From positions 1 through 44,367 of the forward strand of contig JAHWKI010000001.1 in NCBI GenBank assembly GCA_019347975.1: a stretch of 44,367 nt of DNA, in the 5' to 3' direction. The DNA is from Gemmatimonadota bacterium. Lineage in GTDB: Bacteria; Gemmatimonadota; Gemmatimonadetes; Longimicrobiales; RSA9. A program made the translations under genes and the position numbers. The notes beneath the pieces were generated by a model. The model was not told where the DNA came from and searched no databases. It saw nothing but the letters and a program-made list of their open reading frames with translations. Positions within the stretch are counted from its first letter, which is position 1, and each line of letters opens with the position of its first letter. Below, piece by piece: positions 7,347 through 25,975 of this stretch.

Positions 7347-7352
7347 CCGGCC

Positions 7353-7769: not shown

Positions 7770-7887
7770 GCGTACCGTCCCCTTCGTCTCTGCCGTCGAT
7801 CAGGGCGCCAAGGTAATCCACGCGCCTTCGGCCGGGCAACTTGGCGGAGGCCCCCCGTTCTCCTGCCCCCGCGCCGCGCGCGTATGC

Positions 7888-8733: not shown

Positions 8734-10015
8734 CCATGGAGAGGACGCGGATGCGGCCGCCGGGGAAGTCCACCTCGTCGCTGGCCTTCGCGAGCCGACC
8801 GAGGCGGCCCATGACGTACCCCGCGACCGTGGTGTAGTCCTCCTCGGGCAGGGCGAGCTCGTAGCGCTCGTTGATGTCGCTCACGCCCACCGTCCCGCTG
8901 AGCAGGACGCCCCCCTCGGCGATCTCCAGGATCTCGTCGTGGACCTCCTCGTGCTCGTCCGCGATCTCGCCGACGATCTCCTCGACCAGGTCCTCCAGGG
9001 TCACCAGCCCGGCCGTACCGCCGAACTCGTCCACCACGATGGCGAGATGGATGCGGTCCTTCTGCATGTCCCGCAGCAGGTTCTCGACGCTCTTCCCCTC
9101 CGGGACGAACGTGGCGGAGCGGACGAGGGGCGTGAGATCGAGGACGCCGGCGCGCTGCGCCCGCCAGACCTCGCGGGCGAGCACGACGCCCACGACATGG
9201 TCGAGGGAGTCCTCGTACACGGGGAGGCGCGAGTGGCCCTCGGTGAGAATGACATCAGCGGCCTGCTCCACGGTGTAGCTGGCCGGGATGGCCACCATCT
9301 CGGTGCGAGGCGTCATCACCTCACCGGCAGAGGTCTCGGAAAGGTCGAACACGCCGCGGATCATGTCCACCGGCTCCTTGGAGAGGAGACCGGACTCGTA
9401 GCTCTGGTCGACGAGCATCTCGATCTCTTCCGGCCGGTGCACGCGCTCCATCTCGGTCGCCGCGCGGAGCCCCATGGTCCGGAGGAGCAGGTTCGCGGCA
9501 CCGTTGAGGAGGATGATGAACGGCGTGAAGATGCGGGAGAACACGAGGAGCGGGCCGGCGGTCCAGAGGCTGACCTGCTCCGGGAAGAGGAGCGCGAGGG
9601 ACTTGGGGGCGAGCTCGCCGAACACGATGTGCATCACCGTGATCAGCGAGAAGGCCAGGGCGACGGCGACGCCGTGGGCGGCCAGGATATCGAACGGGGG
9701 TGGGAGTCCGTCGAAGGCCGCGAGAAAGATGACGGCGAGGGTGCTCTCGCCGACCCAGCCGAGGGCGAGGGAGGCGAGGGTGATGCCGAGCTGCGTGGCC
9801 GAGATGTAGTGGTCGAGGTGCGTGATGACCTCGCGGGCCAGGCGCGCTCGGCGGTTCCCGTCCAGCGCCATCTGCTCGATCCGGGTGCGCCGCGCGCCGA
9901 CGAGCGCGAACTCCGAGGCCACGAAGAAGCCGTTGGCGGCGACCAGAAGGAACGCGATGAGGAGACGGAAGAGGATCTCGCCGACGCTGAGCGCGGCGTG
10001 GAGCTCGCCTTCCAT
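8651..10015 (-). CDS. Hemolysin/CorC family protein (DUF21/CNNM TM domain + CBS pair + CorC_HlyC domain)
   Basis: 454 aa. N-terminal 4-TM DUF21-like region, a central CBS region (..IPASYTVEQAADVIL..), and a C-terminal transporter-associated domain. Confidence 0.88.
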   Translation of the reverse strand: MEGELHAALSVGEILFRLLIAFLLVAANGFFVASEFALVGARRTRIEQMALDGNRRARLAREVITHLDHYISATQLGITLASLALGWVGESTLAVIFLAAFDGLPPPFDILAAHGVAVALAFSLITVMHIVFGELAPKSLALLFPEQVSLWTAGPLLVFSRIFTPFIILLNGAANLLLRTMGLRAATEMERVHRPEEIEMLVDQSYESGLLSKEPVDMIRGVFDLSETSAGEVMTPRTEMVAIPASYTVEQAADVILTEGHSRLPVYEDSLDHVVGVVLAREVWRAQRAGVLDLTPLVRSATFVPEGKSVENLLRDMQKDRIHLAIVVDEFGGTAGLVTLEDLVEEIVGEIADEHEEVHDEILEIAEGGVLLSGTVGVSDINERYELALPEEDYTTVAGYVMGRLGRLAKASDEVDFPGGRIRVLSMDGRRILRVALLLDAAIPDDGDEPPVRD

Positions 10016-10040
10016 TAATGTACGACCCGGAGGTCAGCCA

Positions 10041-11789
<1,749 letters not shown>

Positions 11790-11846
11790 CAGCAGTCAGC
11801 GCTCCGTATCGCATGCCCGGCGGCCCGCTTCGGCCCCGAAGGCCTC

Positions 11847-12896
11847 CTACCCGGCGGCGGCGCGCACGATCCGAGCCGCCACCTCGTACGGTGTGACCTC
11901 CCCGGCGTCGAGAGCTTCCAGACTCTTCTCCAGGATGGCTCCTCCCTCGCCGTCCTGCCAGACCCGCAGGAGCAACGACTGATGGACCGCGTCCCGCACC
12001 CGCTCCTCCAGCCGGGCGCGACGCCGCCGCACGAGCTCACCGGTCTCCTCCAGCCACGCGGTATGCGCGTCGAGGGCCGCGAGGAGCTCCGGTAGCCCCT
12101 CTCCTCCCTCCGCCTGGGTGAGCAGCACGGGAATCTCCCATGCCCGGTGCTCCGTCGAAGTCGAACTCGAAGTCGAACTCGAAGTCGTCTTCTTCCCCGC
12201 CCTCCGGAGGTCCACGCCGTGGTGCGCCGGGATGTTCCGCATGGCCTGGCCCATGCGCAGGTGGAGCATCATCTCCACCTCCCTGGCCAGGCGCGGGGCG
12301 CCCGGACGATCGGCCTTGTTGATGACGAAGAGGTCCGCGGCCTCCATGAGCCCGGCCTTCATGGTCTGGATGGAGTCGCCGGATTCGGGGACGAGGACGA
12401 CGACGGTCGTATCGGACGCCGCGGCGATGTCCAGCTCGCTCTGGCCCACACCCACCGTCTCGACGAGGATGACCTCGAAGCCGTACGCGGCGATCACGTC
12501 GATCACCTCGCGGGTCGCCGCGGCGAGCCCGCCGAGGGCGCCGCGCGTCGCCATGGACCGGATGAAGACACCCTCGTCGCTGGCGACGTCGTTCATGCGG
12601 ATCCGATCGCCGAGGAGCGCCCCGCCTGTGTAGGGGGAGGTCGGATCCACGGCGACGACGCCGACGGTCTGACCGCGCTCGCGAAGCAGGCGGATCAGGT
12701 TGGACGTGATGGTGCTCTTCCCCGCCCCGGGCGGACCCGTGATTCCGATCCGGCGCGCGTTTCGGCCGCCGCCGTGGAGCTCGTGGAGGAGCTCCTGGAA
12801 GCCCTCGCGCTGATTCTCCACGATGGAGATCACGCGGGCGAGGGCGGCGCGCTGACCGGCGCGGAACCGGGCGAGGAGGTCATCGTGCTGCGTCAT
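11847..12896 (-). CDS. meaB: Mutase-associated G-protein chaperone MeaB/ArgK family
   Basis: GITGPPGAGKST P-loop and VAVDPTSPYTGGALLGDRIRM signature. The ORF runs up to 12998, but the ATG at 12896 (MTQHDDLLARFRAGQRAALARVISIVEN) matches normal family N-termini. Confidence 0.88.
   Translation of the reverse strand: MTQHDDLLARFRAGQRAALARVISIVENQREGFQELLHELHGGGRNARRIGITGPPGAGKSTITSNLIRLLRERGQTVGVVAVDPTSPYTGGALLGDRIRMNDVASDEGVFIRSMATRGALGGLAAATREVIDVIAAYGFEVILVETVGVGQSELDIAAASDTTVVVLVPESGDSIQTMKAGLMEAADLFVINKADRPGAPRLAREVEMMLHLRMGQAMRNIPAHHGVDLRRAGKKTTSSSTSSSTSTEHRAWEIPVLLTQAEGGEGLPELLAALDAHTAWLEETGELVRRRRARLEERVRDAVHQSLLLRVWQDGEGGAILEKSLEALDAGEVTPYEVAARIVRAAAG
12154..12189. repeat. 12-mer/hexamer tandem repeat gtcgaagtcgaactcgaagtcgaactcgaagtcgtc, in frame inside meaB (encodes TTSSSTSSSTST)
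   Basis: Read directly. Reverse-complement orientation relative to the repeats at 1151 and 2536. Confidence 0.75.
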
Positions 12897-12906
12897 GTAT
12901 GGGGCG

Positions 12907-12935
12907 AATGTCCGGAGCGCGGCGGGATCTGTCAA
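12907..12935 (-). promoter_or_regulatory. Candidate sigma70-like promoter for meaB: TTGACA-17 nt-GACATT, ending ~10 nt before the 12896 ATG (would give a near-leaderless mRNA)
   Basis: tgtcaa at 12930-12935 and aatgtc at 12907-12912 on the plus strand, 17-nt spacer. Sequence match only. Confidence 0.25.
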
Positions 12936-13009
12936 ACGCCCGCGGTGATCCGTCCGAGGTGGCCGGAAAGGCGGTGGCAGGTCAATATGCGGGTTCATTT
13001 TTCCGGGAG

Positions 13010-13954
13010 GTGCGGCTGAGATCCAGGGCCAGGAGGTGGATCCTCGTGATGGGGGCGATGAGCGGCCTGTCCGCCTGCGAAGACGGGACGGAGCCGCTGG
13101 TGACGCGCCCCAGCCCGCTGGCGGGGGCCTCCTTCTATGTGCCCTACCCCTCCGACGCCTCGAGACAGGCCGAAGCGTGGCGGGCCGACCGGCCGCTCGA
13201 CGCGGCGGCGATGGACAGGATCGCTTCGGAGCCGAGAGGGGTGTGGCTCACCGATTCCGATCCGCTGCCGGAGCTGACCGGGACGCTCGCGGCGGCGGAG
13301 GAAACCGGCACGGTCCCGGTCTTCGTCGCCTATTACATCCCCCAGCGGGACTGCGGGGGCGAGGGGGCGGCCACGCCGGCGGCGTACGCCGAGTGGATCC
13401 GGACGGTGGCCTCGTCGCTGGAGGGACGGGAAGCCGTCGTGGTGGTGGAGCCGGACGCACTAGGGCACCTCGAGTGTGAGGGGGTGCGGCGAGCGGAGCG
13501 GCTGGCCGTGCTGCGGGACGCGGTCACGGTGCTGAAGTCCGCCGGGGCGGTCGTCTACCTGGACGGCGGACACCCCGACTGGCTGAGAGTGGCGGACGCC
13601 GCGGAGCGGCTCGAAGCGGCCGGGATCGACGACGCGGACGGCTTTTCGCTGAACGTCGCGAACTTCGTCGACACCGGTGAGAACGTGGAGTACGGGCAGG
13701 CGGTGGCCGCTCTCCTCGGGCCGACGGGGTTCATCATCGACACGAGCCGCAACGGCGCCGGGAGCGCTCCGGACGGTGAGTGGTGCAACCCTCCCGGCCG
13801 GAAGCTCGGCGCCGCTCCGACGACCGAAGCTCTCTACCCGGCGGTCGACGCCCTCCTGTGGATCAAGCGGCCAGGCCAATCCGACGGCACCTGCAACGGG
13901 GGCCCCCCCTCCGGGGAGTGGTGGCCGGAATACGCGCTGATGTTGGCCGGCTGA
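13010..13954 (+). CDS. Glycoside hydrolase family 6 (beta-1,4-glucanase-type), lipoprotein, no CBM
   Basis: Both GH6 signatures are present: VAYYIPQRDCGGEGA and VVVVEPDALGHL. Also FIIDTSRNG and LWIKRPGQSDG. A GTG start at 13010 gives VRLRSRARRWILVMGAMSGLSAC (lipobox LSAC). The ORF track starts it at 12899. Confidence 0.85.
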   Translation: MRLRSRARRWILVMGAMSGLSACEDGTEPLVTRPSPLAGASFYVPYPSDASRQAEAWRADRPLDAAAMDRIASEPRGVWLTDSDPLPELTGTLAAAEETGTVPVFVAYYIPQRDCGGEGAATPAAYAEWIRTVASSLEGREAVVVVEPDALGHLECEGVRRAERLAVLRDAVTVLKSAGAVVYLDGGHPDWLRVADAAERLEAAGIDDADGFSLNVANFVDTGENVEYGQAVAALLGPTGFIIDTSRNGAGSAPDGEWCNPPGRKLGAAPTTEALYPAVDALLWIKRPGQSDGTCNGGPPSGEWWPEYALMLAG

Positions 13955-14057
13955 GCCGCGTTCGGCCCCTTTCGGCACGACATTTGACCTGATGTCAGAG
14001 GACCGCTCCGGGCCGGGCGCGGGTATGTGCCCGTAGACCCTTCAAGGAGGCAACCTC

Positions 14058-15146
14058 TTGCGGCATAACGAGAAAAGGCACCACGCCGAGCGGCGGCGCC
14101 ACCAGGGGCCGTGGTGGAAACCGGACCGGCGCAGCATCGCGCCCGCGCTCATGGGCGGACTCTCGACCCTGATTCCGGGGCGTGCGGCCCCGGCGGCGCC
14201 CCCGGCCATGGCGGCGTCCGAGCCGGGACGGGAGCCACCGGAGCGGGAGGTCGCGACCGCGACGAGCAAGCTCACCCGGACCACACTGCACGTCCCTCGC
14301 AATGAAAAGGCGGAGCGACAGGTCGCGAGCTGGCGCAAGAGCCGCCCCGAGGACGCGCGGCTGCTCGAACGCATGCTGTCCCAGCCGACGGCGTCCTGGT
14401 TCGGAGACTGGAACCGGGACGTACGGGCGGACGTGAACCGGCTGGTCACGGAGGCGGCGAAGAACGGCTCCGTTCCGGTCATGGTGGCGTACAACATCCC
14501 CAACAGGGACTGCAACCAGTATTCGGCCGGCGGCGTCGGTGACGCCGCGGAGTACCGGAGCTGGGTGCGCCAAGTCGCCGCCGGGATCGGGGATCGTGAC
14601 GCCGTGGTGATCCTCGAGCCGGACGCGGTGGCGCTCGTCTCCTGCCTGACGCAGGAAGGCCAGGCCGAGCGCTTCTCGCTCATCCGCGAGGCCGTCTCGC
14701 TGCTGAAGAAGGAGAGCGGTGCGACCGTCTACATCGACGCCGGTCACGCGCGGTGGGTCCCGGAAGAGGAAATCGCCCAGCGTCTGCACCTGGCCGGGGT
14801 CGACCTGGCGGACGGATTCGCGCTGAACGTTTCGAATTTCCTCGGCACGGCGGAGAACACGGCGTACGGTGAGCGCGTGGGCCGCCGACTGGGGAACCCG
14901 CACTTCGTGATCGACACCAGCCGGAACGGCGGGTCGGTGGCGGACGGGGAATGGTGCAATCCCGCTGGCGCGGCTCTCGGCCAGACCCCGACGACGGAAA
15001 CACGGCATCCGCTCCTGGACGCGCTGCTCTGGATCAAGCGGCCCGGAGAGTCGGACGGGACGTGCAACGGCGGCCCGCCCGCGGGTGAGTGGTGGGGTGA
15101 ATACGCGCTCGGGCTCGCCCGTGGGGGGACGCGCCTGGCCGGCTGA
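14058..15146 (+). CDS. Glycoside hydrolase family 6, second tandem paralogue
   Basis: VAYNIPNRDCNQYSAGG and VVILEPDAVAL signatures; FVIDTSRNG; LWIKRPGESDG. TTG start 7 nt after AAGGAGG (14044-14050). The N-terminus has an RR-containing signal-like region. Confidence 0.85.
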   Translation: MRHNEKRHHAERRRHQGPWWKPDRRSIAPALMGGLSTLIPGRAAPAAPPAMAASEPGREPPEREVATATSKLTRTTLHVPRNEKAERQVASWRKSRPEDARLLERMLSQPTASWFGDWNRDVRADVNRLVTEAAKNGSVPVMVAYNIPNRDCNQYSAGGVGDAAEYRSWVRQVAAGIGDRDAVVILEPDAVALVSCLTQEGQAERFSLIREAVSLLKKESGATVYIDAGHARWVPEEEIAQRLHLAGVDLADGFALNVSNFLGTAENTAYGERVGRRLGNPHFVIDTSRNGGSVADGEWCNPAGAALGQTPTTETRHPLLDALLWIKRPGESDGTCNGGPPAGEWWGEYALGLARGGTRLAG

Positions 15147-15173
15147 CGACTTCAAGCAAGAAAGCGAGCTTCT

Positions 15174-16418
15174 GTGCACTCTGGAAATACGTGGGTCCTG
15201 GGATCCGCGGCGGCGTGGGCGCTGCTGTCCGTCGTGATCGTGGCCGCTCCGGTATGCGGGCAGGGGGACCAGGGGCGGTCGGGCCCGCTGGGTGAGTCGG
15301 TGGACGGTCCGATGATGGACGCCGCGCGCACCGCCTGGCGGTTCATCGAGGAGAACACCGACGAGGGGACCGGGCTGGTGCGGGCGACGCCGAACTACCC
15401 GAACGCCACGACCTGGGACATGGGGAGTGGTCTCGCGGGGCTGTACTCCGCCCACGAGCTGGGCATCATCAATGACGCGGAATACGGGCGGCGGATGGGA
15501 CAGATGCTCGCCACCCTCGCGGAGCTGCCGCTCTTCGACGGGGTCGCCTACCACAAGGTCTACGCGGTGGCGAACGGCGCGATGGTGGACAACGAGGGTG
15601 ATCCGGACCGCGACGGGTACGCGTGGTCGGCCACCGACCTGGGCCGCTTCCTCCTCTGGCTGGCGATCATCGAGCGGTCGGACCCGGAGCACGCCGAGCT
15701 GGCGCGCCGTGTGGCCCGGCGGGTGGATCCATCCCGGATCATCAAGGACGGGTACCTCTACGGTGAGGACAACACCCGCTCCCAGCCCTTCCTGGAGGGC
15801 CGGATCGGGTACGAGCAGTACGCGGCGCGGGGGTTCGCCGCGTGGGGCTGGCGCGCGGAGAAGGCGCTGAACCTGATGACCAACGCCGATCCCGTCGACG
15901 TCTGGGGTTACACGATCTATGAGGACGGGCGAGGGCTGGACCGCGTCGTGAGCGAGCCGTTCGTGCTGATGGGTCTGGAAACCGGCTGGGACGACTCGAC
16001 CCGCGCGCTGTCCGGCCGGCTGCTGGACCTGCAGGAGGAGCGCTACAAGCGGACAGGCCAGGTGACCATCGCCAGCGAGGACGCCGTGGACGTCGCGCCC
16101 CACTACTTCTACTACTACTGCATCTACTGCAACGGCAAGCCGTTCGTGGTCGACATCCACACGCCGGGACAAACGCTGGACGAGCCGCGGTGGGTCAGCA
16201 CGAAAAACTCCTTCGGGTGGCACGCGCTCCTGCCCCGGCCGTACACCGAGCTGGCGGTCGAGACGGTGCAGCCGGCCCGGACGTCCCGCGGCTGGCAGTC
16301 GGGCGTATTCGAGAAGAGCCACGAGCCGACGGGGACCCATGACGTCAACACCGCGGCGATCATCCTGGAGGCGGCGCTCTACGCCAAGCGGGGCGCGCCC
16401 CTGCTTCCGGAGGGCTGA
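15174..16418 (+). CDS. Secreted DUF3131-like protein (probable alpha/alpha-barrel glycoside-hydrolase-like fold)
   Basis: 414 aa, GTG start, signal peptide WVLGSAAAWALLSVVIVAAPVCG. ...ATTWDMGSGLAGLYSAHELGII... resembles DUF3131 family proteins from memory. Not verified by search. Confidence 0.55.
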   Translation: MHSGNTWVLGSAAAWALLSVVIVAAPVCGQGDQGRSGPLGESVDGPMMDAARTAWRFIEENTDEGTGLVRATPNYPNATTWDMGSGLAGLYSAHELGIINDAEYGRRMGQMLATLAELPLFDGVAYHKVYAVANGAMVDNEGDPDRDGYAWSATDLGRFLLWLAIIERSDPEHAELARRVARRVDPSRIIKDGYLYGEDNTRSQPFLEGRIGYEQYAARGFAAWGWRAEKALNLMTNADPVDVWGYTIYEDGRGLDRVVSEPFVLMGLETGWDDSTRALSGRLLDLQEERYKRTGQVTIASEDAVDVAPHYFYYYCIYCNGKPFVVDIHTPGQTLDEPRWVSTKNSFGWHALLPRPYTELAVETVQPARTSRGWQSGVFEKSHEPTGTHDVNTAAIILEAALYAKRGAPLLPEG

Positions 16419-16433
16419 GGGCGGCGCCGGGCC

Positions 16434-17672
16434 CTACGACCCGGCGGAAGCGCCTTCACAGGGGAGCGGACGTCCCTCGGCGCTCGGGTCGCCGTCCCCC
16501 GGCAGGACTTCGGACGGAGGCGGACCGCCCAGCGCGGCGTAGGCGTCCAGGAACGCCCGGGTGATCTCGTCGCGGGGGCAGGGGCGCGTGAACGGGACCA
16601 TGACCACGGTCGGTCTCGGAGCCTCCCGCACCTGACGAGCGAATCGGGCGACGCCCTGCGGATCGGCCGGGTCGTACGGCTGGAACCGGAAGGGAACGCC
16701 GTACTGCTGGAAGAGCCGCTTCCCCTCGGCGATCCACTCCCGCTGCTCCGGGTCGGCAGGGTCCATCATCATGAGGACGGTCTCCACCTGTCCGCCGAAG
16801 AGCTTGCTGAAGCCCTCGCGCTCGTTCGGATAGGGGACCACCCAGAGGTCCTCCGCGAGGACCTGGAAGTTGCCGCGCTCCATCAGGAAGCGACCCTCGG
16901 CGACCCGGTCGGCGAAGGTGCGGGGCGCCTTCAGGTCGCCGGCCGTGGCGACGCGGGCCTCCCCCATGCGCTCGACCATGGCCTTCACGACGTTGGCCCG
17001 GTCACGCCCGAGGCCGCAGTGCACGTAGTACTTCCCCGTTCCGCGCTCGACCAGGCCGCGGATCGTTTCCAGCGCCCCCTCGTTGTCGCTCACCCACGGG
17101 AGCATGGGCGCGTGCACGAACGGGATCCCGACGTTCCGGGCCGCTTCCTTCTCCGCGCGGATCCCCTGCAGCTCGATGGGGACGACGGCCGGGTGCTGGA
17201 GTGAGACGACGGCCGTGAAGCCGGCCTCCTTCAGCTCGCGCAGCCGCGCTTCGTCGGGGTAGGCGCCGAACACGAACTCCGGCCCCGCATCGAGGGCGAT
17301 CCGCGACTCCTCGCCGCCCGCTATGGCTGCGTACCTCGCGGGGTTGGACCACCCCCACAGCGCCAGCGATGCGAGCATGGTCGCGACGGCCGGGATGGCG
17401 AACCGCCCCGCTCCGCCGCGGAGGGACCGTCGCCACAGCCAGAGCGAGAGGAAGAACGAGCCGATGACGAACGCGGCCATGACCGCCCACATGGCGTAGG
17501 CCTCCATCCCGGCCGCGGCGCTGTCGCGGAGGAGGCCGGTCACGCCCCGCGCCGCGAACAGGAGCACCGCCGTCCCGGTCGCGAAGCCGATCATCAGCCA
17601 GAGGTACAGGAACAGCCCGACCTCCACCCAGCGCCGACGATCCGCCCGCGGGTTCCGCTCACCAACGCTCAT
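16434..17672 (-). CDS. 3-TM membrane-anchored dual-specificity/PTP-like phosphatase (CX5R) with a C-terminal degenerate phosphatase-like half, paralogue 2
   Basis: YYVHCGLGRDRANVV is the HCxxGxxR P-loop. N-terminal TM region GFATGTAVLL. The ATG at 17672 overlaps the upstream stop (ATGA). The ORF track extends it to 17720. Confidence 0.7.
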   Translation of the reverse strand: MSVGERNPRADRRRWVEVGLFLYLWLMIGFATGTAVLLFAARGVTGLLRDSAAAGMEAYAMWAVMAAFVIGSFFLSLWLWRRSLRGGAGRFAIPAVATMLASLALWGWSNPARYAAIAGGEESRIALDAGPEFVFGAYPDEARLRELKEAGFTAVVSLQHPAVVPIELQGIRAEKEAARNVGIPFVHAPMLPWVSDNEGALETIRGLVERGTGKYYVHCGLGRDRANVVKAMVERMGEARVATAGDLKAPRTFADRVAEGRFLMERGNFQVLAEDLWVVPYPNEREGFSKLFGGQVETVLMMMDPADPEQREWIAEGKRLFQQYGVPFRFQPYDPADPQGVARFARQVREAPRPTVVMVPFTRPCPRDEITRAFLDAYAALGGPPPSEVLPGDGDPSAEGRPLPCEGASAGS

Positions 17673-18829
17673 GATGCCGCCTCCGCCGCCTGCGCGGCTC
17701 GACCTCGCTCCCCCACCCACGCGCTCCGGAAGGTCCCGGCGATCGCCGATTCCCGTCCCGTCCCCGTGAACGGCACGATCACGGTCAGGGGTCGGGGAAG
17801 CCGGCGGGCGGTGCGCGCGATCTCGCTCGCCGCGGCCCCGTCTCCTCCGTCGAGGCTGCGGACGGTGTGCGGCACGTCGAACTGCGTCAGGAGCTCACGC
17901 GCGCTGGCCAGCCACTCCGCCTGCACCGGGTCTGCGTCATCCAGGAGGAGCAGCACGTGCTCCACCTGGCCGCCGAGCATGTGCCCGAACATCTCGTGCT
18001 TGTTCGGATAGGGGACGACCCACACCCCCTCCTCCAGCTCGATCGGCGGACCGCGCTCCAGGTCACCCAGCCCCTCCGCCTCGCGGTCGGCCCACGTGAG
18101 CGCGTCCTCGGTCGCCCCGTCGGAAGCCACCCTCCCGCCCATGCGCTCGATCACGCGCTGGACCACGCTCACCCGATCGCGGCCGAGCCCGCAGTGCACG
18201 TAGTACGTCCCTCCGTCCGCGCTCCTCACCAGCTCCCGGATCGTCTCCAGTGAGCGCTCGTTGTCGCTCACCCACGGCAGCATCGGGGCATGGACGAAAC
18301 GGATCCCCAGCTCCTTCGTCCACTCCTTCTCCCGCGCGATCCCTTCCGGCTCGAACGGCACGACCGCCGGGTGCTGCAGTGACACCACCGCCGTCACCCC
18401 CTCCTCCTTCAGCTGCTGCAGCCGCTCGCGGTCCGGGTAGGGTCCGAACAGGAACTGGCTCCCCGACTCCGTCACCATACGCTCACCGCCCCCCTCCACC
18501 CCGGCCACCGCGGAGTAGACGACAGGGTTCCGCCACCCCCAGAGCGCCAGCATGGCCGACCCCGTGACCGCGACCACGACCAGCCCTCGCACCGGGCGCG
18601 ACGGGTGTCGCAGGATGAGAACCCTGGTGAAGTAGAGCGCCAGCAGAAACGAGCCGCCGATGAACGACAGGATCACGACCAGCATCGCGGCGCGCTCTGC
18701 GCCGGGGGCGTCGAAGGCTTCGGTCACCCAGCGGGTCGGGCCCAGCAGGACGACCGTGCCCGTCGCGAATCCCACCATGAGCCATACGTACGCGAAGAGC
18801 AGGAATCGGGGGACAGAAGGACGATTCAT
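17669..18829 (-). CDS. 3-TM membrane-anchored dual-specificity/PTP-like phosphatase (CX5R) with a C-terminal degenerate phosphatase-like half, paralogue 1
   Basis: YYVHCGLGRDRVSVV P-loop. Colinear with paralogue 2 (GFATGTVVLL, AVVSLQHPAVVP, FVHAPMLPWVSDNE, WVVPYPN). Confidence 0.7.
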   Translation of the reverse strand: MNRPSVPRFLLFAYVWLMVGFATGTVVLLGPTRWVTEAFDAPGAERAAMLVVILSFIGGSFLLALYFTRVLILRHPSRPVRGLVVVAVTGSAMLALWGWRNPVVYSAVAGVEGGGERMVTESGSQFLFGPYPDRERLQQLKEEGVTAVVSLQHPAVVPFEPEGIAREKEWTKELGIRFVHAPMLPWVSDNERSLETIRELVRSADGGTYYVHCGLGRDRVSVVQRVIERMGGRVASDGATEDALTWADREAEGLGDLERGPPIELEEGVWVVPYPNKHEMFGHMLGGQVEHVLLLLDDADPVQAEWLASARELLTQFDVPHTVRSLDGGDGAAASEIARTARRLPRPLTVIVPFTGTGRESAIAGTFRSAWVGERGRAAQAAEAAS

Positions 18830-18855
18830 GTGTGGCCGCTGGGGCGCGAGTCAAA

Positions 18856-18867
18856 AAACAATTGTTT
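18856..18867. promoter_or_regulatory. Perfect 12-bp palindrome AAACAATTGTTT in an AT-rich island of the divergent phosphatase/OMP intergenic region. Candidate operator.
   Basis: Read directly. An adjacent imperfect inverted repeat gcatgtgcaacgcgtatgc lies at 18877-18895. Confidence 0.4.
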
Positions 18868-19008
18868 CTGACGAATGCATGTGCAACGCGTATGCCACGT
18901 TATGGCCGCAGCCGCGGAGCCGGGCGACGTGGCAGACTCTTTGCTTCACAGCACCGCTCACGGCCGATCGGGGATCGGCGGAACCGTCATGAATGAAGGA
19001 AAACGGCG

Positions 19009-19722
19009 ATGAGAAGTGCGTATAGACTGAGTGGGCTGGGAGCGTTGGCTGTCGTGATGGGGCTCGGGGCGGCTCCCGATCGGCTGGAGGCGCAGCTCGA
19101 CTGGACCTCGGCGTCGACCGTGGAGACGGCCGGGGACGACGTGACGTTGATCTACACGCAGCTGAGCGTGAAGCCGGACCGCCGTGGCTTCGTGCCCGTG
19201 GCGTCGGTGAGCCTGTACCGGCTGGAGACCGCCTCCGGCGGCACCTGGTCGACGACGCCGGCGGTCGGAATGGAATACCGCGCGCGGACCGGCATGGTGA
19301 GCGGGAAGGTGGGCTACAGCTTCAAGAGCGACGACGTGGTGGTGCCCTTCTTCGGCGGGAGCGGATCGGGAGTGACGACGAGCCTGCACGGGGAGCACTG
19401 GGGCACGGGACAGTTCGGCCTTCAGGGGATCGGCTCGTACAACTGGGGCTCGGACTACCTGTGGAGCCGTGCGCGGGGAACGGCCCGGGTGAGCGACCTG
19501 CGGGAGGGGGCGCTGCACGTGGGCGCCGAGTACGTGTGGCAGGGGGAGCTGGACAGCCCCGCCGGAGCGACGGGGTACCGGGCCACGCAGTTCGGACCGG
19601 TCGTGCAGTACATCACCCGTGACGGGGGTCCGATCGTGGCCGTGGGCGGGGGCTGGAAGGACGACAACCTGGGAGAGGACGACACCTGGTACGCGAAGGC
19701 GGAGCTGGTCCTCTCCTTCTGA
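19009..19722 (+). CDS. Small outer-membrane beta-barrel-like protein (possibly BcsS-like)
   Basis: 237 aa. Signal peptide ...LGALAVVMGLGAAPDRLEAQ, alternating hydrophobic/aromatic beta-strand pattern, Gly/Tyr-rich, C-terminal ...AELVLSF (terminal Phe typical of OMPs). Confidence 0.55.
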   Translation: MRSAYRLSGLGALAVVMGLGAAPDRLEAQLDWTSASTVETAGDDVTLIYTQLSVKPDRRGFVPVASVSLYRLETASGGTWSTTPAVGMEYRARTGMVSGKVGYSFKSDDVVVPFFGGSGSGVTTSLHGEHWGTGQFGLQGIGSYNWGSDYLWSRARGTARVSDLREGALHVGAEYVWQGELDSPAGATGYRATQFGPVVQYITRDGGPIVAVGGGWKDDNLGEDDTWYAKAELVLSF

Positions 19723-19734
19723 CCCGGGTGGCGG

Positions 19735-20481
19735 TCAGCGCAGCAGGAGCCACGCGACGAAGGATGCGGCGACCTGGACGGTGAGGTTGTCGAGGCCGTG
19801 GCTGCTGAAGGCCTCGACCGCCGCGCCGGCCGCGCCGCAGGCGAGGCCGACGCCGAGGGCGAGGGGGAGGGCGAAGCCGAGGCCAAGGAGGACCGCAGCG
19901 GCGGCCGCGGTTCCGACGAACAGCACCGCGCCGCTCCCTTCGAGGCTGCGGGTCGCCCTGACGCCGGCGAGCGAGGGGACCTCGTAGCGGTGCTTTCCCC
20001 AGCGGGTCCCCACCGGCTCCCCGACCGCGTCGCCCCACCCCGTGACCATGTAGCCGACCGGGGCGAACGCGAAGAAGAGCAGGTTGCTGATCACCCCGCC
20101 GAGTGCGGTGGTGATGAGAGGGACCACGATGAAGAACGTTCGGTGCGGCGCATCGGTTGGACGCGCCATCGCCTCGTAGAACGGGAACCCCGAGCCCTTC
20201 AGGATGCCCACCACCACGACGGCGGCCGTGACGCTCCCGAAGACCACCACGCCGCTGAGCCCCCAGATCAGCTGGACGACGCCCGCAGCCGAGATGATGA
20301 TGAAGTGGAAGATCTTGCGGGTGTACGGCGCGCGCACGCCGCGCCGGATGCGAAGCCACCCCACGAGCGCCGCGGCCGCCGCCGCATAGAGGAGCGCGAG
20401 CGGGACGCCCGCGACCAGTTCTGTGGTCGAGGGTATGAAATCCCGTAGCCATGCGGGCAGCTGCGCGGCGAGCGCTTCCAT
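19735..20481 (-). CDS. Polytopic membrane protein of the CTP-dependent polyprenol/phytol/dolichol kinase - CDP-diglyceride synthase superfamily (COG0170-like)
   Basis: 248 aa, ~7 TM. The GWGDAVGEPVGTRWGKHRY...RSLEGSGAVLF motif pattern is typical of Sec59/VTE5-type kinases. Starts 25 nt after the bcsA-like stop. Confidence 0.6.
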   Translation of the reverse strand: MEALAAQLPAWLRDFIPSTTELVAGVPLALLYAAAAAALVGWLRIRRGVRAPYTRKIFHFIIISAAGVVQLIWGLSGVVVFGSVTAAVVVVGILKGSGFPFYEAMARPTDAPHRTFFIVVPLITTALGGVISNLLFFAFAPVGYMVTGWGDAVGEPVGTRWGKHRYEVPSLAGVRATRSLEGSGAVLFVGTAAAAAVLLGLGFALPLALGVGLACGAAGAAVEAFSSHGLDNLTVQVAASFVAWLLLR

Positions 20482-20506
20482 GAGGTACGTTCCGAGTGAG
20501 GCGGTC

Positions 20507-22849
20507 TCAGCCGACGGCGGGGATGGGGCCTGACCCGTTCAGGCGCCTGAGCCCCACCGAGAAGACGATACCCATGGGGGTGTCCATGGCATGCACGGCG
20601 ACGGCCTCGCCTTCGCCCTCCACCGTTCCGGCGGTGAACCGGACGAGCCCGCCGGGCGGCGGCGGCTGCGACAGGATGAGCCGCGCGCCATCCGAGCTCA
20701 TCTCCTCCAGGTAGCCGAGCTGCGCAGCGGTGCCCGTCTCGGCGCCATGCTCGTCCGGGAAGAAGACGTGTGCCGGGAGCCGAACGGTCTGGCGGGCGGC
20801 GCGCCGCGGGTCGGCGAGCAGCCTGCGAACCGGCTCCAGCGGGCGCTTGGTGTCGCGGAACTGGAGACGGTGCAGCGGCACGGCGTGGTGGGTGCAGTGC
20901 AGGTCGATGGCGTCCCGATCGTCGGGGGCCAGCGGATCCAGTCGCACCCCGTAGTCGTAGTACCGCTGGCTGCGCACGGTGATCTTCTCGCGGTGGACGA
21001 CCTCTCCTCTGACCTCGACGGGCCGGGTCTCGAGCGGGAGCACGAACCGGACACGTGAGCCGCGGTGGAATCGTTCGGCGGCCCGGAAACCCATCCCTTC
21101 CGGATTCAGATCCGTCGTGAGCACGACCACGCGGCGCGCGCGCTCGTCCTCGAGCCCTTTGTCGTCGAGGTCCTCCTCCGGGGCATCCTCGTCCTCCGCG
21201 TCACGAGACGGGATGATCTCCCCCTCGACGGCCATGAGGGCACGGAACCGCTCGTCCACGCGCTGCTGCCGGAACTCGAGGCTCAGCCGCACGACGTAGG
21301 CGGCGAAGTAGACGTTGTACGCGATCCAGAGGAAGTTGAACCAGAACGCGCCCGAGCCCCACCCCGGGGCGCTGTACTCGATCCATCCGCGCGCGTAGGC
21401 CACCGTCCCCCACACCACCGCGAGGATACTGACGACGAGGAGAACCAGCTGGGGAAGATAGCTCCGCAGGGGGACATCGCCGCTGGTCTTCGGCGTCACC
21501 TCGAATTTGAGCTTGCCGCGAGCGAAGAATCCCCTGATGGCCATGGTGTAGATCCAGAACTTGGCCATGTTGTAGCGCTCGGCGATCAGCATGAATCCCG
21601 TTCCGCGGAACAGGAGCTCGAACATGGCGAGGTTCAGGAGGAGGTACGGAATGAAGCGGATCAGGAAGTCCGCTTCATCCACCCAGATGGGTAGAACGCC
21701 GGTGAAGAAGAAGATGATCGGCGCGACATACAGGATCAGCTTGAGCGGCCCGTCGAGATAGGAGATCGTGGAGTCGAAATAGCAGATCCGCTGGGGCCAG
21801 GTGAGCCCCTTCCGGAAGAGCGGGTTGTACTTCCGGAGCACCTGCATGGACCCCTGCCCCCAGCGAAGGCGCTGGACCATGTACTGCCCGGCCGAGGCGG
21901 GAGCGAGCCCGTAGGCGAGGCTCTCCCCGTAGTAGATGGACTTCCAGCCGCGGGAGTGGAGGACGAGGGAGGTCTCCATGTCCTCCGTGATCGTCTCGGT
22001 GGAGAAGCCGCCGATCTCCTCGATGGCCGTGCGGCGGATCACCCCGCAGCTGCCGCAGAAGAACGCCGCGTTCCAGTGGTCCTTCCCCGGCTGGAGCAGC
22101 GAGAAGAAGATCCGCTGCTCTTCCCACAGCCGCCGCCCCTTCTCGTTCACGCTGTAGCTGAACGAGTTGGTGTTGTAGAAGTCCTGCGGCGACTGGACGA
22201 AGGCCACGTCGGGCTCTTCGAAGAAGCCCAGGAGGCTATCCAGCATGTGCGGGAGCGGGACGTGGTCGGCATCCAGCTGGAGGATGAACTCGCCGGACGT
22301 CTCCTTCAGCGCGTTGTTCAGGTTCCCGGCCTTGGCGTGCTCGTTCCCCTGCCGTCGGATGTAGCCGACACCCAGCTCCGAGGCGAGCTCACGCAGCGCG
22401 TCGCGCTTGCCATCGTCCAGGATGAACGTGCGGTGCGGGTACCGGATCGCACGGGCCCCGATCACCGTGCGCCTGATGATCTCCAGGGGCTCGTCGTACG
22501 TCGTGATGAAGACGTCGACATCGAGTCCCTCCGGGGCCGGTGGCGAAGTGCGCCGGTTCAGCGTCCAGACGGTGAACGTGGTCAGCAGGGCCGAGAACAG
22601 CACGTAGGTCTCGGCGGTGACCAGGGGGATCGAGAACCACCAGGCATCCCAGTTCAGCGTCCAGCCCCACCGCCAGATGATGTAATAGGCGCTGTAGAGG
22701 AGGGTCAGGACCGCGAAGAGCCGGACCAGCACCTCCGCCCAGGGCCGGAGGTGCGGCGTCGGGTCCCCCTTACTGCGGACCGGTACGTCGGAGGACTCGC
22801 GCGGCGACCCATCACCGGCACCGCGGAGGCCGCGGGGAGAGGCTTCCAT
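20507..22849 (-). CDS. bcsA: Cellulose-synthase-like processive GT2 (BcsA-type) with two C-terminal PilZ-like modules
   Basis: 780 aa. Motifs: FITTYDEP, ILDDG, HAKAGNLN, QLDADH, FFCGSCGVIRR, TEDMETS, QRLRWGQG. C-terminal RVDER...DLNPEG and RRAAR...EMSSDG (RxxxR / [DN]xSxxG-like). Confidence 0.88.
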   Translation of the reverse strand: MEASPRGLRGAGDGSPRESSDVPVRSKGDPTPHLRPWAEVLVRLFAVLTLLYSAYYIIWRWGWTLNWDAWWFSIPLVTAETYVLFSALLTTFTVWTLNRRTSPPAPEGLDVDVFITTYDEPLEIIRRTVIGARAIRYPHRTFILDDGKRDALRELASELGVGYIRRQGNEHAKAGNLNNALKETSGEFILQLDADHVPLPHMLDSLLGFFEEPDVAFVQSPQDFYNTNSFSYSVNEKGRRLWEEQRIFFSLLQPGKDHWNAAFFCGSCGVIRRTAIEEIGGFSTETITEDMETSLVLHSRGWKSIYYGESLAYGLAPASAGQYMVQRLRWGQGSMQVLRKYNPLFRKGLTWPQRICYFDSTISYLDGPLKLILYVAPIIFFFTGVLPIWVDEADFLIRFIPYLLLNLAMFELLFRGTGFMLIAERYNMAKFWIYTMAIRGFFARGKLKFEVTPKTSGDVPLRSYLPQLVLLVVSILAVVWGTVAYARGWIEYSAPGWGSGAFWFNFLWIAYNVYFAAYVVRLSLEFRQQRVDERFRALMAVEGEIIPSRDAEDEDAPEEDLDDKGLEDERARRVVVLTTDLNPEGMGFRAAERFHRGSRVRFVLPLETRPVEVRGEVVHREKITVRSQRYYDYGVRLDPLAPDDRDAIDLHCTHHAVPLHRLQFRDTKRPLEPVRRLLADPRRAARQTVRLPAHVFFPDEHGAETGTAAQLGYLEEMSSDGARLILSQPPPPGGLVRFTAGTVEGEGEAVAVHAMDTPMGIVFSVGLRRLNGSGPIPAVG

Positions 22850-22940
22850 GTATCGGTGGTAATGGCAAAACCCAAGCCATACGCTATACCCGAGCGCACA
22901 GCGTTCCCCGGAGCGCTGCCGGGTTGCGGATCGGAAGGGG

Positions 22941-24605
22941 CTATTCCCGGCGACGCTCCCGCTGCCCCAGTCCGCGGGCGTGCCGCATGGGGTTCTCCAG
23001 GAGGTGGGTGGGCAGGAGGAGGACGATCATGAAGAGAAGGAAGGCGGCGACGAGGCCTCCGGCGAGGACCCACCAGCTGGGGACCGCGATGAAGACGATG
23101 GCCGAGATGAGGGCCATGGTCGCCGCGAAGAGGGAGAGCTGAATGCGGCGGACCTGGAGGGAGAAGAAGCGCTCGATCTGCATGAGATCGCGGGAGTGGA
23201 TGCGAACGCGGAGCTCCTCGCGGTCGAGGCGCTGGACGATGTCGCGAACGCCGGTGATGACGGACCGGGCGTCGTCGAAGACGTTGCGCGCGATCTCCGA
23301 CGGCTGTCGCGCGGCGACCCGCAGCAGCTCACCTTTCATCCGGCGGACGACGGCGCGGGAGATATCGAGGCCGTTGAACGCGGGATCGTAGCGGAAGCCG
23401 ATCCCTTCCAGGAGGGCGGCGGCGCGGAAGAAGTAGACGAGCTCGCGGGGGAGCATGAGCGGCCAGGTGTAGAACGTGTCCATGATCTCGGCGACCAGCT
23501 CCTGGACGCGGTGCTGGCCGAGGTCGCGGGCGCGCTCGACGGTGGCGAGGATCTCGGCGGCGGCATCACGGATCTCCGCGCGGGAGATGTCGGGGTCGAT
23601 CATCCCGAGCTCGTACATGCCGTTGATGATGCCGTCGACGTCCTCCCGGGCGGCGGCGAGGGCGATGCGGATGATGGTGTCGCGGGTGGGGGGCCGGAGC
23701 TGGACGACCATCCCCCAGTCGAGGAAGACGATGCGTCCCCGGGCATCGACCAGGAGGTTCCCGGGATGGGGGTCTGCGTGCATGATGCCCTCGACGAGGA
23801 GCATGCGGAGGTAGACCTCGGTGAGGGTCTCCATGAGGCCGCGGAACCGCAGCTCGCCGGACGCGAAGCGGGGGGCGAGGCGATCGATCCGCTCCCCATC
23901 CACCCATTCCATGACCAGGACCCGGCGGCGTACGAGCCCCTCGAGGACGGCGGGGGCCATCACGCGGCCATCGTCGCCGAAGTGGGTGAGGAACAGCGCC
24001 ATGTGGCGGGCCTCCTCGCGGAAGTCCATCTCCACGCGCACCCGCACGCTGAACTCCCGGACCACGTTGGTGAGGGCCTTCACGTGGTGGTTCGGGAAGA
24101 GGATGTTGAGGGCGTAGAGGATGCGGAAGGAGATCTCGAGGTCGAGGGCGACCAGGGCCTCGACCCCGGGCCGGAGCACCTTCACCGCGACATGGCGGTC
24201 GCCGACCCGGGCCCGGTGGACCTGGCCGAGGGAGGCCGCGGCGACCGGCTCCCGGTCGAAAGAGGCGAACACCGCGTCGAGGGGCTGCCCCAGCTCGGCG
24301 ACGATCACCGCCTCGATCGCCCCCGGCTCGTCCGGCGGAACGCGGTCCTGCAGGCTCGCGATCGCGCTGAGATACGGCTCGGGGAGGATGTCCGCCCGGG
24401 CGCCGAAGACCTGAGCCAGCTTGATGAACGTGGGCCCCAGGGCCGCGATCGTCGCCGTCAGCCGCTGCGCGCGGCGGCGATGCCTCTCGAGCGGGAGACG
24501 GCGCGGACGGCCGAAGAGGAGCCAGCGGCGCCGGTCGCGAAGGAAGGCGACCAGGAACGGAAAAAGCCTCAGCGCGATGCTGACGCTCCGGCGCCAGCGC
24601 CTCAT
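22941..24605 (-). CDS. ubiB: ABC1/UbiB (AarF) atypical kinase family protein
   Basis: ...LGPTFIKLAQVFGARADILP..., ...AAASLGQVHRARV..DRHVAVKVLRPG.... C-terminal TM helices. The ATG at 24605 overlaps the mgtE stop (ATGA). The ORF's N-terminal extension to 25121 is rejected. Confidence 0.85.
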   Translation of the reverse strand: MRRWRRSVSIALRLFPFLVAFLRDRRRWLLFGRPRRLPLERHRRRAQRLTATIAALGPTFIKLAQVFGARADILPEPYLSAIASLQDRVPPDEPGAIEAVIVAELGQPLDAVFASFDREPVAAASLGQVHRARVGDRHVAVKVLRPGVEALVALDLEISFRILYALNILFPNHHVKALTNVVREFSVRVRVEMDFREEARHMALFLTHFGDDGRVMAPAVLEGLVRRRVLVMEWVDGERIDRLAPRFASGELRFRGLMETLTEVYLRMLLVEGIMHADPHPGNLLVDARGRIVFLDWGMVVQLRPPTRDTIIRIALAAAREDVDGIINGMYELGMIDPDISRAEIRDAAAEILATVERARDLGQHRVQELVAEIMDTFYTWPLMLPRELVYFFRAAALLEGIGFRYDPAFNGLDISRAVVRRMKGELLRVAARQPSEIARNVFDDARSVITGVRDIVQRLDREELRVRIHSRDLMQIERFFSLQVRRIQLSLFAATMALISAIVFIAVPSWWVLAGGLVAAFLLFMIVLLLPTHLLENPMRHARGLGQRERRRE

Positions 24606-25975
24606 ATGAGAAAGCGCGTGGCCAGGCCGAGCAGGAGGAAGAAGCCGGCCACGTCGGTGACGGCGGTGACGAACACGGAGGAGGCCACGGCCGGGTCCGC
24701 GCCGACCCGCTCGAGGAGAACGGGGACGAACGCGCCGGCGACCGAGGCCACGATGAGATTCCCCCACATGGCGAACAGAACCACCGCGCCGAGTGCCCAC
24801 GTCCCGAACATGAAGTAGCTCCCTCCGCCGACGATCAGGCCGAGAGCGAGGCCGTTGACCAGGCCGACGACGACCTCCTTGGCGGCGACGCTCCAGCGGC
24901 GGGCGGCGGTCTCGCGGGTGAGGGCGAGGCGGCGGACCGTCACCGCGAGAGCCTGGGTGCCCGCGTTCCCACCCAGCGCGGCGATCACCGGCAGCAGCGC
25001 GGCCAGGGCGAGCATCTGGTCGATGGTGTCGGTGAACTGATAGATGACGAAGGCGCCGAGAGCCGCGGTGAGGGTATTGAGGGTGAGCCAGGGCAGCCGG
25101 CTCCGCACCGCTTCGGTCCACCCGCCCCGGACCTCCTCCTCCGACCCGATCCCCGCGAGGCGCAGGAGATCCTCCGTCTGCTCCGCTTCGATGACGTCCA
25201 TGACATCGTCCCAGGTGATCCGGCCCAGGAGGATGTTGTTCGGCCCCAGGACCGCCACGGACGGCTCGTTGTAGCGCGCGATGAGCCGACCGACTTCCTC
25301 CTGGTCCATGTCCACCGGTACGGTGATTACCGGAGGCTCCACCAGGTCGGCGATGGGGGAGCTCGGCTCGGCGATCACCAGGTCCTGGAGCGTGACGAGC
25401 CCCTGGAGGCGCCGGATCAGGTCGACGACGAAGATGTTGTAGAACTCCGTGTCCAGCTCCCGCGCCTGCCGCCGCACCTCCTGGATCGCTTCGCCCGCCG
25501 TCAGGTGGACGGAGATGGCGACCAGCTCGGTCGTCATGATCCCACCCGCCGAGTCCTCGGGGTAGGCGATCAGCTCCCGGAGCTCGCCCGCCTCGGTGGG
25601 GGCGAGGGTGGCGAGGACGCGCGCCTGGTCTTCGGGCTCGAGCTCTCCGATGAGGTCGGCCGCGTCGTCGCTGCTGAGCTCCCCGATCAGCTCCCCGATG
25701 CGCTCGGGATGGAAGCCGGCGAGGATGTCCTCGGGGTGCTCGTGCGCCTCCATCTCCGCCAGCGTGTCGGAGGCGACCTCGGCCGGGAGCAGGTCGAAGA
25801 CGCGGACGCGCTCCTCGTCGTCGTCCAGGTGCTCGATGAGGTCGGCGATGTCCGACGGGTGGAGGTCGTCCAGGAACGCGGTGAGCGCGATGTCATCACC
25901 GGCCTCGAGGAGCTTTTCCAGCCGGGCGAGGCGCTGCTGGGACTCCTCCACGTGCTGGAGGTCCGGAGTGCTCAA
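24602..25975 (-). CDS. mgtE: Magnesium transporter MgtE
   Basis: N-domain (acidic helices), CBS pair, and C-terminal 5-TM domain ...LLPVIAALGGNAGTQALAV.... A TTG start at 25975 overlaps the DUF502 stop. The in-frame upstream extension to 26764 is Arg/Pro-rich junk. Confidence 0.85.
   Translation of the reverse strand: MSTPDLQHVEESQQRLARLEKLLEAGDDIALTAFLDDLHPSDIADLIEHLDDDEERVRVFDLLPAEVASDTLAEMEAHEHPEDILAGFHPERIGELIGELSSDDAADLIGELEPEDQARVLATLAPTEAGELRELIAYPEDSAGGIMTTELVAISVHLTAGEAIQEVRRQARELDTEFYNIFVVDLIRRLQGLVTLQDLVIAEPSSPIADLVEPPVITVPVDMDQEEVGRLIARYNEPSVAVLGPNNILLGRITWDDVMDVIEAEQTEDLLRLAGIGSEEEVRGGWTEAVRSRLPWLTLNTLTAALGAFVIYQFTDTIDQMLALAALLPVIAALGGNAGTQALAVTVRRLALTRETAARRWSVAAKEVVVGLVNGLALGLIVGGGSYFMFGTWALGAVVLFAMWGNLIVASVAGAFVPVLLERVGADPAVASSVFVTAVTDVAGFFLLLGLATRFLI

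Follow-up and report, generated by a model that had tools for sequence, protein, structure and literature searches.

Predicted periplasm-facing cysteine phosphatases with a degenerate second domain in a beta-glucan gene cluster of a Gemmatimonadota bacterium, and their association with putative lipid kinases

We have analysed a tandem pair of genes, here called A and B, in a 44,367-nucleotide stretch of DNA from a Gemmatimonadota bacterium (GenBank assembly GCA_019347975.1, contig JAHWKI010000001.1, positions 1 to 44,367 of the forward strand), which we refer to in its entirety as the window. Both genes encode proteins in which three predicted transmembrane (TM) helices are followed by a domain with the modelled fold of the dual-specificity phosphatases (DSPs), and then by a second, degenerate copy of this domain (pseudo-DSP). 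The features of the two genes are as follows.

17669-18829, minus strand: gene A, 386 amino acids (aa), ATG start; three TM helices, DSP domain and pseudo-DSP domain
18533-18805, minus strand: three TM helices of A (residues 9-30, 48-67 and 83-99; from the hydropathy profile)
18134-18481, minus strand: putative catalytic DSP-fold domain of A (residues 117-232; from Foldseek and sub-threshold Pfam DSP hits)
18173-18196, minus strand: P-loop HCGLGRDR of A (H212, the putative nucleophile C213, D218 and R219)
17675-18043, minus strand: pseudo-DSP domain and C-terminal helix of A (domain residues 263-358; no P-loop Cys or Arg)
16434-17672, minus strand: gene B, 412 aa from the ATG; paralogue of A with the same architecture
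17349-17621, minus strand: three TM helices of B (residues 18-39, 60-79 and 92-108; mapped by alignment)
16959-17303, minus strand: putative catalytic DSP domain of B (residues 124-238)
16998-17021, minus strand: P-loop HCGLGRDR of B, within its catalytic domain
16578-16865, minus strand: pseudo-DSP domain of B (residues 270-365; by alignment to A)

An initial annotation of the window had described A and B as colinear, overlapping paralogues, and this description holds: the two open reading frames (ORFs) occur exactly at the coordinates given above, the junction sequence (...gca tcATGAgc...) places the TGA of A over the ATG of B (as ATGA), and the two proteins are 49% identical across 370 aa (E=2e-109). 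For gene B the ORF list also contains a longer version that starts with GTG; the database entry takes the ATG. Every residue that is invariant in the family is present in B as well. In a small tree A and B stand apart, A with single-copy genes (for example P0006) and B in a clade of its own, and the pairs found in other genomes are different combinations of paralogue types. A recent tandem duplication was rejected on these grounds, and the paralogy of A and B appears to be old. Tandem pairs are rare, since beyond the close relatives of the window we found one only at locus L007 among 61 loci from species-representative genomes; the pair is a lineage-specific trait and not a rule of the family. 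A scan of positions 16300-19100 gave no promoter-like site and only two terminator-like hits, both within gene A, where they overlap, and no more than expected by chance. The 179-bp divergent intergenic region 18830-19008, between gene A and the gene of a predicted outer-membrane protein, includes an AT-rich stretch (gaaacaattgttttttgac); the GC content of the genome is 70%. No promoter of the sigma-70 type was found in this region by the scan.

A homologue search with A returned 515 sequences, including B (as P0091), none of which carries a precomputed Pfam domain. In a profile search of 1.84 billion representative proteins there were 276 clusters at E<1e-30 and 757 at E<1e-3; on the first of these counts the family is small. 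The genome hits are all metagenome-assembled genomes (MAGs), from Gemmatimonadaceae, Longimicrobiaceae and Vicinamibacterales, with a few from Bacteroidota, Wallbacteria and unclassified bacteria. The distant members from Bacteroidota and from unclassified MAGs (loci L054, L060 and L061) have unrelated neighbours, such as a K+ transporter, a methyl-accepting chemotaxis protein and a DnaB-like protein, and are thus uninformative on function. No Pfam or NCBIfam model exists for this phosphatase family, and no member has been characterised; in the literature we found no published family that combines a three-helix anchor, an active DSP, at least one pseudo-DSP and an optional fused domain resembling lipid kinases.

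The AlphaFold2 model of A (pLDDT 90.7, pTM 0.81) consists of three N-terminal helices, an alpha/beta domain (residues 117-232), a linker and a second alpha/beta domain (residues 263-358), with the P-loop between strand 208-212 and helix 217-229. Foldseek matches the first domain with probability 1.0 to structures of the DSP fold (TM-score of about 0.5, normalised to the target), among them the DUF442 protein 3gxh, PRL-1, AtPFA-DSP1, LSF2, SEX4, TpbA, KAP and Siw14. The HCxxGxxR loop noticed earlier in this half is borne out by the family: in the alignment of 117 homologues, from which all our figures of invariance and charge are derived, HCGLGRDR is invariant in 117/117, B included. Among 150 family representatives the P-loop reads HCYLGKDR in 58, HCYLGRDR in 41 and HCGLGRDR in 16, so that the form HCYLG[KR]DR accounts for 99/150. 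The invariance of its Cys, Arg and Asp in all 117 homologues argues for catalysis. The invariant acids of the family are D218, inside the P-loop, and E160. The Asp of the segment PMLPWVSDNE (D189), which had been put forward as a possible general acid, is present in both A and B and is not conserved elsewhere (Asp in 42, Ala in 38 and Ser in 23 of the 117 homologues); it is thus an unlikely general acid, and we rejected it as a candidate. No conserved Asp that could serve as general acid was found about 30 residues upstream of the Cys in this alignment.

Searches with A and B against sequence models are less telling than the structural comparison: the DSP hits in Pfam are below threshold (PF22785 with 22.6 bits and PF22784 with about 18 bits, for a cut-off of 27), NCBIfam gives no hit to a phosphatase family, its sole hit being the Blh model on B (18 bits, for a cut-off of 625), and the sequence search of the PDB gives nothing significant (3gxg at E=1.3). 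Judged from their sequences, the proteins of this family miss the D-loop Asp and fall below every curated family threshold. By modelled fold and P-loop, A and B are Cys-phosphatases of the protein tyrosine phosphatase (PTP)/DSP superfamily, for which we infer phosphatase activity.

The closest parallel to the P-loop is found in the atypical lipid phosphatases (ALPs) of the MptpB/LipA type, whose signature HCXXGKDR includes a catalytic Asp and a Lys that binds the lipid head group, and which have no WPD loop (PMC3091653); myotubularins (HCSDGWDR) also have an Asp in the P-loop (PMC3091653). The family of A and B shares with the ALPs the form HCxxG[K/R]DR with its internal acid Asp, down to the exact HCYLGKDR of the 58 representatives mentioned above, and in neither group is there a conserved Asp in a WPD- or D-loop; in the window proteins the Lys is replaced by Arg. 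The likeness is confined to the loop: no sequence homology was detected beyond it, and there is no hit to Pfam Y_phosphatase3 at E<=1. Moreover, the ALPs are soluble or secreted proteins of a single domain, whereas the present family has a three-helix membrane domain and a dead second DSP.

The best structural matches (TM-score of about 0.5-0.57, normalised to the target or to the domain) are members of DUF442/COG3453 (3gxg, 3gxh and 2f46; also the N-terminal domain of Blh), and some members of the family carry the name 'DUF442 family' in data of the Joint Genome Institute (JGI). Simple membership of DUF442 was nevertheless rejected, as there is no hit to PF04273 at E<=1 and the PDB match to 3gxg is the insignificant one given above, so that the likeness is structural only; DUF442 proteins are also small and soluble. 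The one characterised DUF442 domain, that of Blh, is a sulfur transferase (PMC5823870, PMC9163753), and it could be argued from this, from the structural matches, from the weak Blh hit and from the JGI name that A and B carry out rhodanese-like chemistry and are not phosphatases. We consider this a most improbable explanation: the Pfam DUF442 model stays unmatched even at that permissive threshold, no sulfur-oxidation genes occur in any neighbourhood examined, and an HCxxG[KR]DR loop with an Asp of the catalytic type is a feature of phosphatases (PMC3091653).

The second domain had been described as a repeat of the first without the Cys/Arg pair, and we compared the two halves by the order of their secondary-structure elements, by hhalign and by modelling the second domain separately. 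All three agree with that description and with the picture of an active CX5R half followed by a degenerate one. In the AlphaFold2 model both halves have the element order b b a b a b a b a, the second ending in a long helix; hhalign brings the PYPN of domain 2 in register with the PYPD of domain 1 (E=0.004); and domain 2 modelled alone (pLDDT 90.9) finds as its best structural matches LSF2 (top), DUSP26, Siw14, SsoPTP and DUF442, with TM-scores of 0.5-0.57. These structural matches have weak E-values (0.004 at best) and include some Rossmann-like folds. Where domain 1 has His-Cys-Gly, domain 2 has Pro-Phe-Thr. The same succession of an active Cys-phosphatase domain and a dead copy of the same fold is known from receptor-type PTPs and from myotubularin pairs; these are, however, eukaryotic and cytoplasmic, with no homology to A and B beyond the superfamily. 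Some longer members (P0256, P0253, P0257 and P0284) contain a third module of about 110 aa (…IGPRPxxxEF…GGPWYLYG…), absent from the window proteins, which looks like another degenerate DSP half; in P0253 the pair formed by pseudo-DSP and third module occurs repeated.

The hydropathy of the family profile has three peaks, near residues 21, 58 and 90, in keeping with the three N-terminal helices proposed initially. The mean number of Lys and Arg (K+R) is 2.9 before TM1, 2.6 in loop 1, 4.7 in loop 2 (between TM2 and TM3) and 1.0 after TM3, and the inside-minus-outside charge bias is positive in 99% of the homologues. Fusion proteins provide two further lines of evidence. In P0253, P0257 and P0284 a helix comes after the soluble part, with a strongly basic loop (RxRRxxRAPYTRK, K+R 5.7) behind it, the segment preceding this helix having K+R 0.8; and in P0247 a GGDEF domain, which needs cytoplasmic GTP, lies N-terminal of TM1 with no helix between, as expected if the N-terminus is inside and the soluble domains are outside. 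Thus, three independent lines support, at the level of prediction, an extracytoplasmic location of the soluble domains of A and B, on the periplasmic face of the inner membrane (for A, a predicted N-terminus inside and C-terminus outside), as the initial annotation had also concluded. The catalytic Cys is the sole Cys of the soluble part in 110/117 homologues, which suits an oxidising compartment. Most of the residues with at least 90% conservation are found in the outer halves of TM1 and TM3, and conservation of the TM region as a whole is unusually high for a simple anchor. The implied rarity of periplasmic Cys-phosphatases was, on the other hand, overstated, since TpbA of Pseudomonas aeruginosa is a periplasmic dual-specificity phosphatase (PMC2691606).

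Genes A and B belong to a cluster that spans positions 12743-23026 and contains, besides them, two glycoside hydrolases of family 6 (GH6), a DUF3131 protein, an outer-membrane protein, a 248-aa protein and a BcsA homologue, a processive glycosyltransferase of family 2 (GT2).

12743-15146, plus strand: two tandem GH6 glycoside hydrolase genes (Pfam E=2e-56 and 4e-62)
15174-16418, plus strand: DUF3131 protein (Pfam E=2e-95)
19009-19722, plus strand: predicted outer-membrane protein, 237 aa (signal-peptide-like N-terminus, C-terminal Phe)
19735-20481, minus strand: 248-aa polytopic membrane protein (JGI 'phytol kinase'), fused to the phosphatase elsewhere
20507-23026, minus strand: BcsA-like processive GT2 synthase with PilZ (Pfam GT2, Cellulose_synt and PilZ)

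The synthase matches E. coli BcsA with E=8e-83, while its match to the CelA model TIGR03030 is below the cut-off of that model. The two GH6 genes are paralogues of each other, and related clusters have a GH26-like gene instead; the usual endoglucanase of bcs operons belongs to GH8. The 237-aa protein has no family match and ends in ...ELVLSF, with the C-terminal Phe typical of outer-membrane beta-barrels; in Vicinamibacterales clusters its position is taken by a BcsS-like protein. A search of the literature on DUF3131 found nothing functional. The genes flanking the cluster are of the housekeeping type: an unrelated block on the minus strand (2901-13247) contains AtuA, an NhaA-type antiporter, a carboxyltransferase, a B12-binding domain protein, a CNNM/CorC transporter, the large subunit of methylmalonyl-CoA mutase and MeaB. 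Directly upstream of the synthase gene there is an ORF for an atypical kinase of the ABC1/UbiB type (22944-25121, minus strand), whose 3' end shares about 80 nt with the longest synthase ORF and which is followed by MgtE (24602-26908, minus strand); homologues of the ABC1 gene also occur near the cluster at loci L030, L031 and L035.

The recurrence of these neighbours was counted over 60 non-redundant loci. A BcsA-like or GT2 synthase occurs within 5 kb in 24/60 of them, in addition to the window, DUF3131 in 17/60, a homologue of the 237-aa outer-membrane protein in 19/60, GH6 in 7/60 and a GH26-like hydrolase in 8/60. The supposed partnership with the adjacent synthase, the GH6 hydrolases and the outer-membrane protein is therefore only in part upheld: BcsA-like synthase, GH6, DUF3131 and outer-membrane protein do recur across Gemmatimonadota, Longimicrobiaceae and Vicinamibacterales, and the association with the synthase is real across lineages, but the latter is within reach in only about 40% of the loci. 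At some loci the phosphatase gene starts 3-260 nt after the synthase gene (3 nt in L067), and it comes directly after it in Longimicrobiaceae and in L001, L030 and L067. In two Vicinamibacterales loci (L002 and L066) the synthase is a shorter GT2 of about 520 aa without PilZ, whose best Pfam match is Glyco_transf_21; these clusters also contain genes for a sugar-1-phosphate nucleotidyltransferase, STAS and an anti-sigma kinase and, beside DUF3131, those of two conserved, uncharacterised proteins of about 295 and 340 aa. In loci of the Longimicrobium type (L001, at 11191-11817, and also L016, L055 and L062) a 208-aa ORF without family match overlaps the end of the phosphatase gene.

Such close linkage to the synthase would also fit a structural subunit, in which the alpha/beta domains guide the glucan, the helices pack on the synthase and catalysis is secondary or absent. 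The scan of the window ORFs found no BcsB, for which A and B might be surrogates, and the unusual conservation of the TM region would be accounted for. We nevertheless regard this explanation as quite improbable, because the Cys, Arg and Asp of the P-loop are invariant, many loci have no synthase, and BcsB is not among the structural matches of either domain.

A second set of associations points towards lipid kinases, which are the most widespread partners of the family. In 31/60 loci a lipid kinase of the DAGK_cat/YegS type is encoded directly upstream of the phosphatase on the same strand; all 31 are Gemmatimonadales, and some of them also have the synthase cluster. The 248-aa protein of the window, whose homologues carry the JGI label 'phytol kinase', represents a different type of putative kinase: a full-length homologue is fused at the C-terminus of the phosphatase in 15/150 family representatives (E of about 1e-100), and in Vicinamibacterales loci, as also in L065 and L066, its gene is the next one upstream of the phosphatase, the Vicinamibacterales protein being 60% identical to that of the window. 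The 248-aa protein is 60-75% identical across three orders, a conservation that exceeds that of the phosphatase, and has the invariant motifs YTRKxFHF, GWGDAxGEPxG, RSLEGS and SSHGLDNLTVQ; one free-standing copy adjoins MprF-like lipid genes. We consider it the putative functional partner of the phosphatase. In three loci a homologue of the PAP2 undecaprenyl-diphosphatase YbjG is in the same operon.

The initial annotation had left the substrate as either a glucan phosphate or a lipid carrier; the evidence now leans to the lipid, while a glucan substrate is still a live rival. In the glucan case A and B would be periplasmic phosphatases of the laforin/SEX4/LSF2 kind, which dephosphorylate the beta-glucan made by the synthase or remove the remnant of a phosphate-linked substituent, with the pseudo-DSP as a glucan-binding surface. 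The frequency and closeness of the synthase gene, the conservation of DUF3131 and of GH6 or GH26-like hydrolases in the cluster, the place of LSF2 at the top of the domain 2 matches, and the presence of LSF2 and SEX4 among those of domain 1 are all consistent with this. However, more than half of the loci are without a synthase in reach and still keep the lipid-kinase neighbour, and the fusion partner is a polytopic membrane enzyme, not a carbohydrate-binding module (CBM). While laforin, SEX4 and LSF2 share with our proteins the DSP fold and an association with glucan metabolism, they are plastid or cytosolic enzymes, whereas A and B are bacterial and predicted to be periplasmic, with a membrane anchor, a P-loop of other composition and no CBM in Pfam searches; domain 2 itself has, by model and structural matches, a DSP-like fold and not that of a CBM. 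CGLGRDR does not fit the presumed P-loop signature of glucan phosphatases, C-zeta-A-G-psi-G-R, of which the papers searched gave no confirmation. We also know of no source of glucan phosphomonoesters in the ATP-free periplasm. Altogether, we judge the glucan-phosphatase explanation somewhat unlikely, and the family is not a demonstrable member of the glucan phosphatases, any more than of DUF442 or of the MptpB-like ALPs.

A protein substrate is suggested by TpbA (PA3885), which controls cyclic di-GMP (c-di-GMP) and Pel (PMC2691606, PMC4409338) and which, as noted above, is among the structural matches. TpbA shares with A and B the DSP fold, the link to an exopolysaccharide and a periplasmic location, known for TpbA (PMC2691606) and predicted for A and B; the window synthase has a c-di-GMP-binding PilZ domain, and the GGDEF fusion of P0247 would fit a phosphatase whose target is the periplasmic part of a signalling protein or of a synthase, and which thereby controls c-di-GMP or the synthase. 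That single GGDEF fusion has to be set against 15 kinase-like fusions, and no tyrosine kinase or obvious phosphoprotein partner is conserved in the neighbourhoods examined. In addition, the P-loop of A and B is of the lipid-phosphatase type, and TpbA, whose reported substrate is the protein TpbB, is a soluble single domain with a signal peptide, whereas the present family is membrane-embedded through its three helices, has two domains and has putative lipid kinases as partners. A role of the TpbA kind is in our opinion improbable.

The reading that we favour, tentatively and as the most plausible of those considered, is that A and B are periplasm-facing phosphatases of a lipid phosphate or pyrophosphate which work together with a kinase on the cytoplasmic face, in the service of the glucan machinery. 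The links, by fusion and adjacency, to two unrelated types of lipid kinase, the PAP2 neighbour, the lipid-phosphatase type of P-loop and the conserved helix bundle together suggest that the substrate is most likely a membrane lipid phosphomonoester or pyrophosphate (polyprenyl phosphate or pyrophosphate, or of the phosphatidate type). From these features we infer not only the substrate and the activity on it, but also a lipid cycle. In such a cycle Cys213 would attack the phosphate held by Arg219, with Asp218 of the P-loop acting as the acid, as in MptpB and myotubularins, while the pseudo-DSP domain and the conserved bundle of three helices would bring the active site into place, either at the outer leaflet or facing partner proteins. 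On the cytoplasmic side, the neutral lipid alcohol so released would regain a phosphate from the partner kinase, presumably the protein encoded at 19735-20481 in the window and the DAGK_cat kinase in Gemmatimonadales, and the couple of phosphatase and kinase would have been recruited to a BcsA-like cluster for beta-glucan synthesis and export. The proposed functional analogy is with the outer-face integral membrane phosphatases of lipid phosphates, PAP2 (PgpB, YbjG, BcrC) and BacA/UppP, the former co-occurring with the family in some clusters; the folds and the chemistry are unrelated, PAP2 using a His nucleophile where a CX5R enzyme uses Cys. An undecaprenyl-phosphate phosphatase activity has been detected in S. 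aureus and never assigned to a protein (PMC5723303), and the family of A and B is a candidate for an activity of this kind in other bacteria. A literature search for CX5R enzymes with undecaprenyl lipids as substrates gave no relevant result.

Several observations weigh against this coupling of a lipid phosphatase to a kinase. The 248-aa protein has no match in Pfam (as a single sequence or with 38 family members), none in NCBIfam, and none in the PDB by sequence or profile, and thus its 'kinase' label is unverified; the assignment rests on the JGI name and on an apparent resemblance of GWGDAxGEPxG and RSLEGS to motifs of CTP-dependent polyprenol and diacylglycerol kinases (Sec59, VTE5, Dgk1). 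The adjacency of DAGK_cat is confined to one order and could therefore reflect inherited synteny. Synthases of the BcsA type are not known to require lipid carriers. The co-localisation with synthase and glucanases fits a glucan substrate equally well, and the glucan phosphatases LSF2 and SEX4 are also among the best Foldseek matches.

A more specific version of the lipid-phosphatase reading, which we consider distinctly unlikely, is a lipid shuttle across the bilayer, formed by the phosphatase together with its partner kinase: a flippase-independent recycling route for a BcsA-like glucan system that is possibly lipid-primed. The periplasmic Cys-phosphatase would strip the phosphate or phosphates from spent polyprenyl phosphate or pyrophosphate, or from phosphatidate, in the outer leaflet; the neutral alcohol would flip spontaneously, after which the kinase, fused or adjacent and dependent on CTP or ATP, would restore the phosphate at the cytoplasmic face. 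If true, the shuttle would provide a first molecular candidate, in bacteria outside Staphylococcus, for an activity of the type detected in S. aureus (PMC5723303).

Since the family has neither a Pfam or NCBIfam model nor a characterised member, even a simple activity assay would yield new information. Should the favoured reading of a lipid phosphatase coupled to a kinase prove correct, A and B would define a new class of inner-membrane Cys-phosphatase of the PTP fold, with an active site in the oxidising periplasm and a dead copy of itself, which works with a lipid kinase across the bilayer. They would add to PAP2 and BacA a third type of lipid phosphatase at the outer face, homologous to neither, could bear on the origin of free undecaprenol, and would reveal an unexpected lipid-linked step in the synthase-type production of beta-glucan in abundant, poorly studied soil phyla (Gemmatimonadota, Vicinamibacterales).

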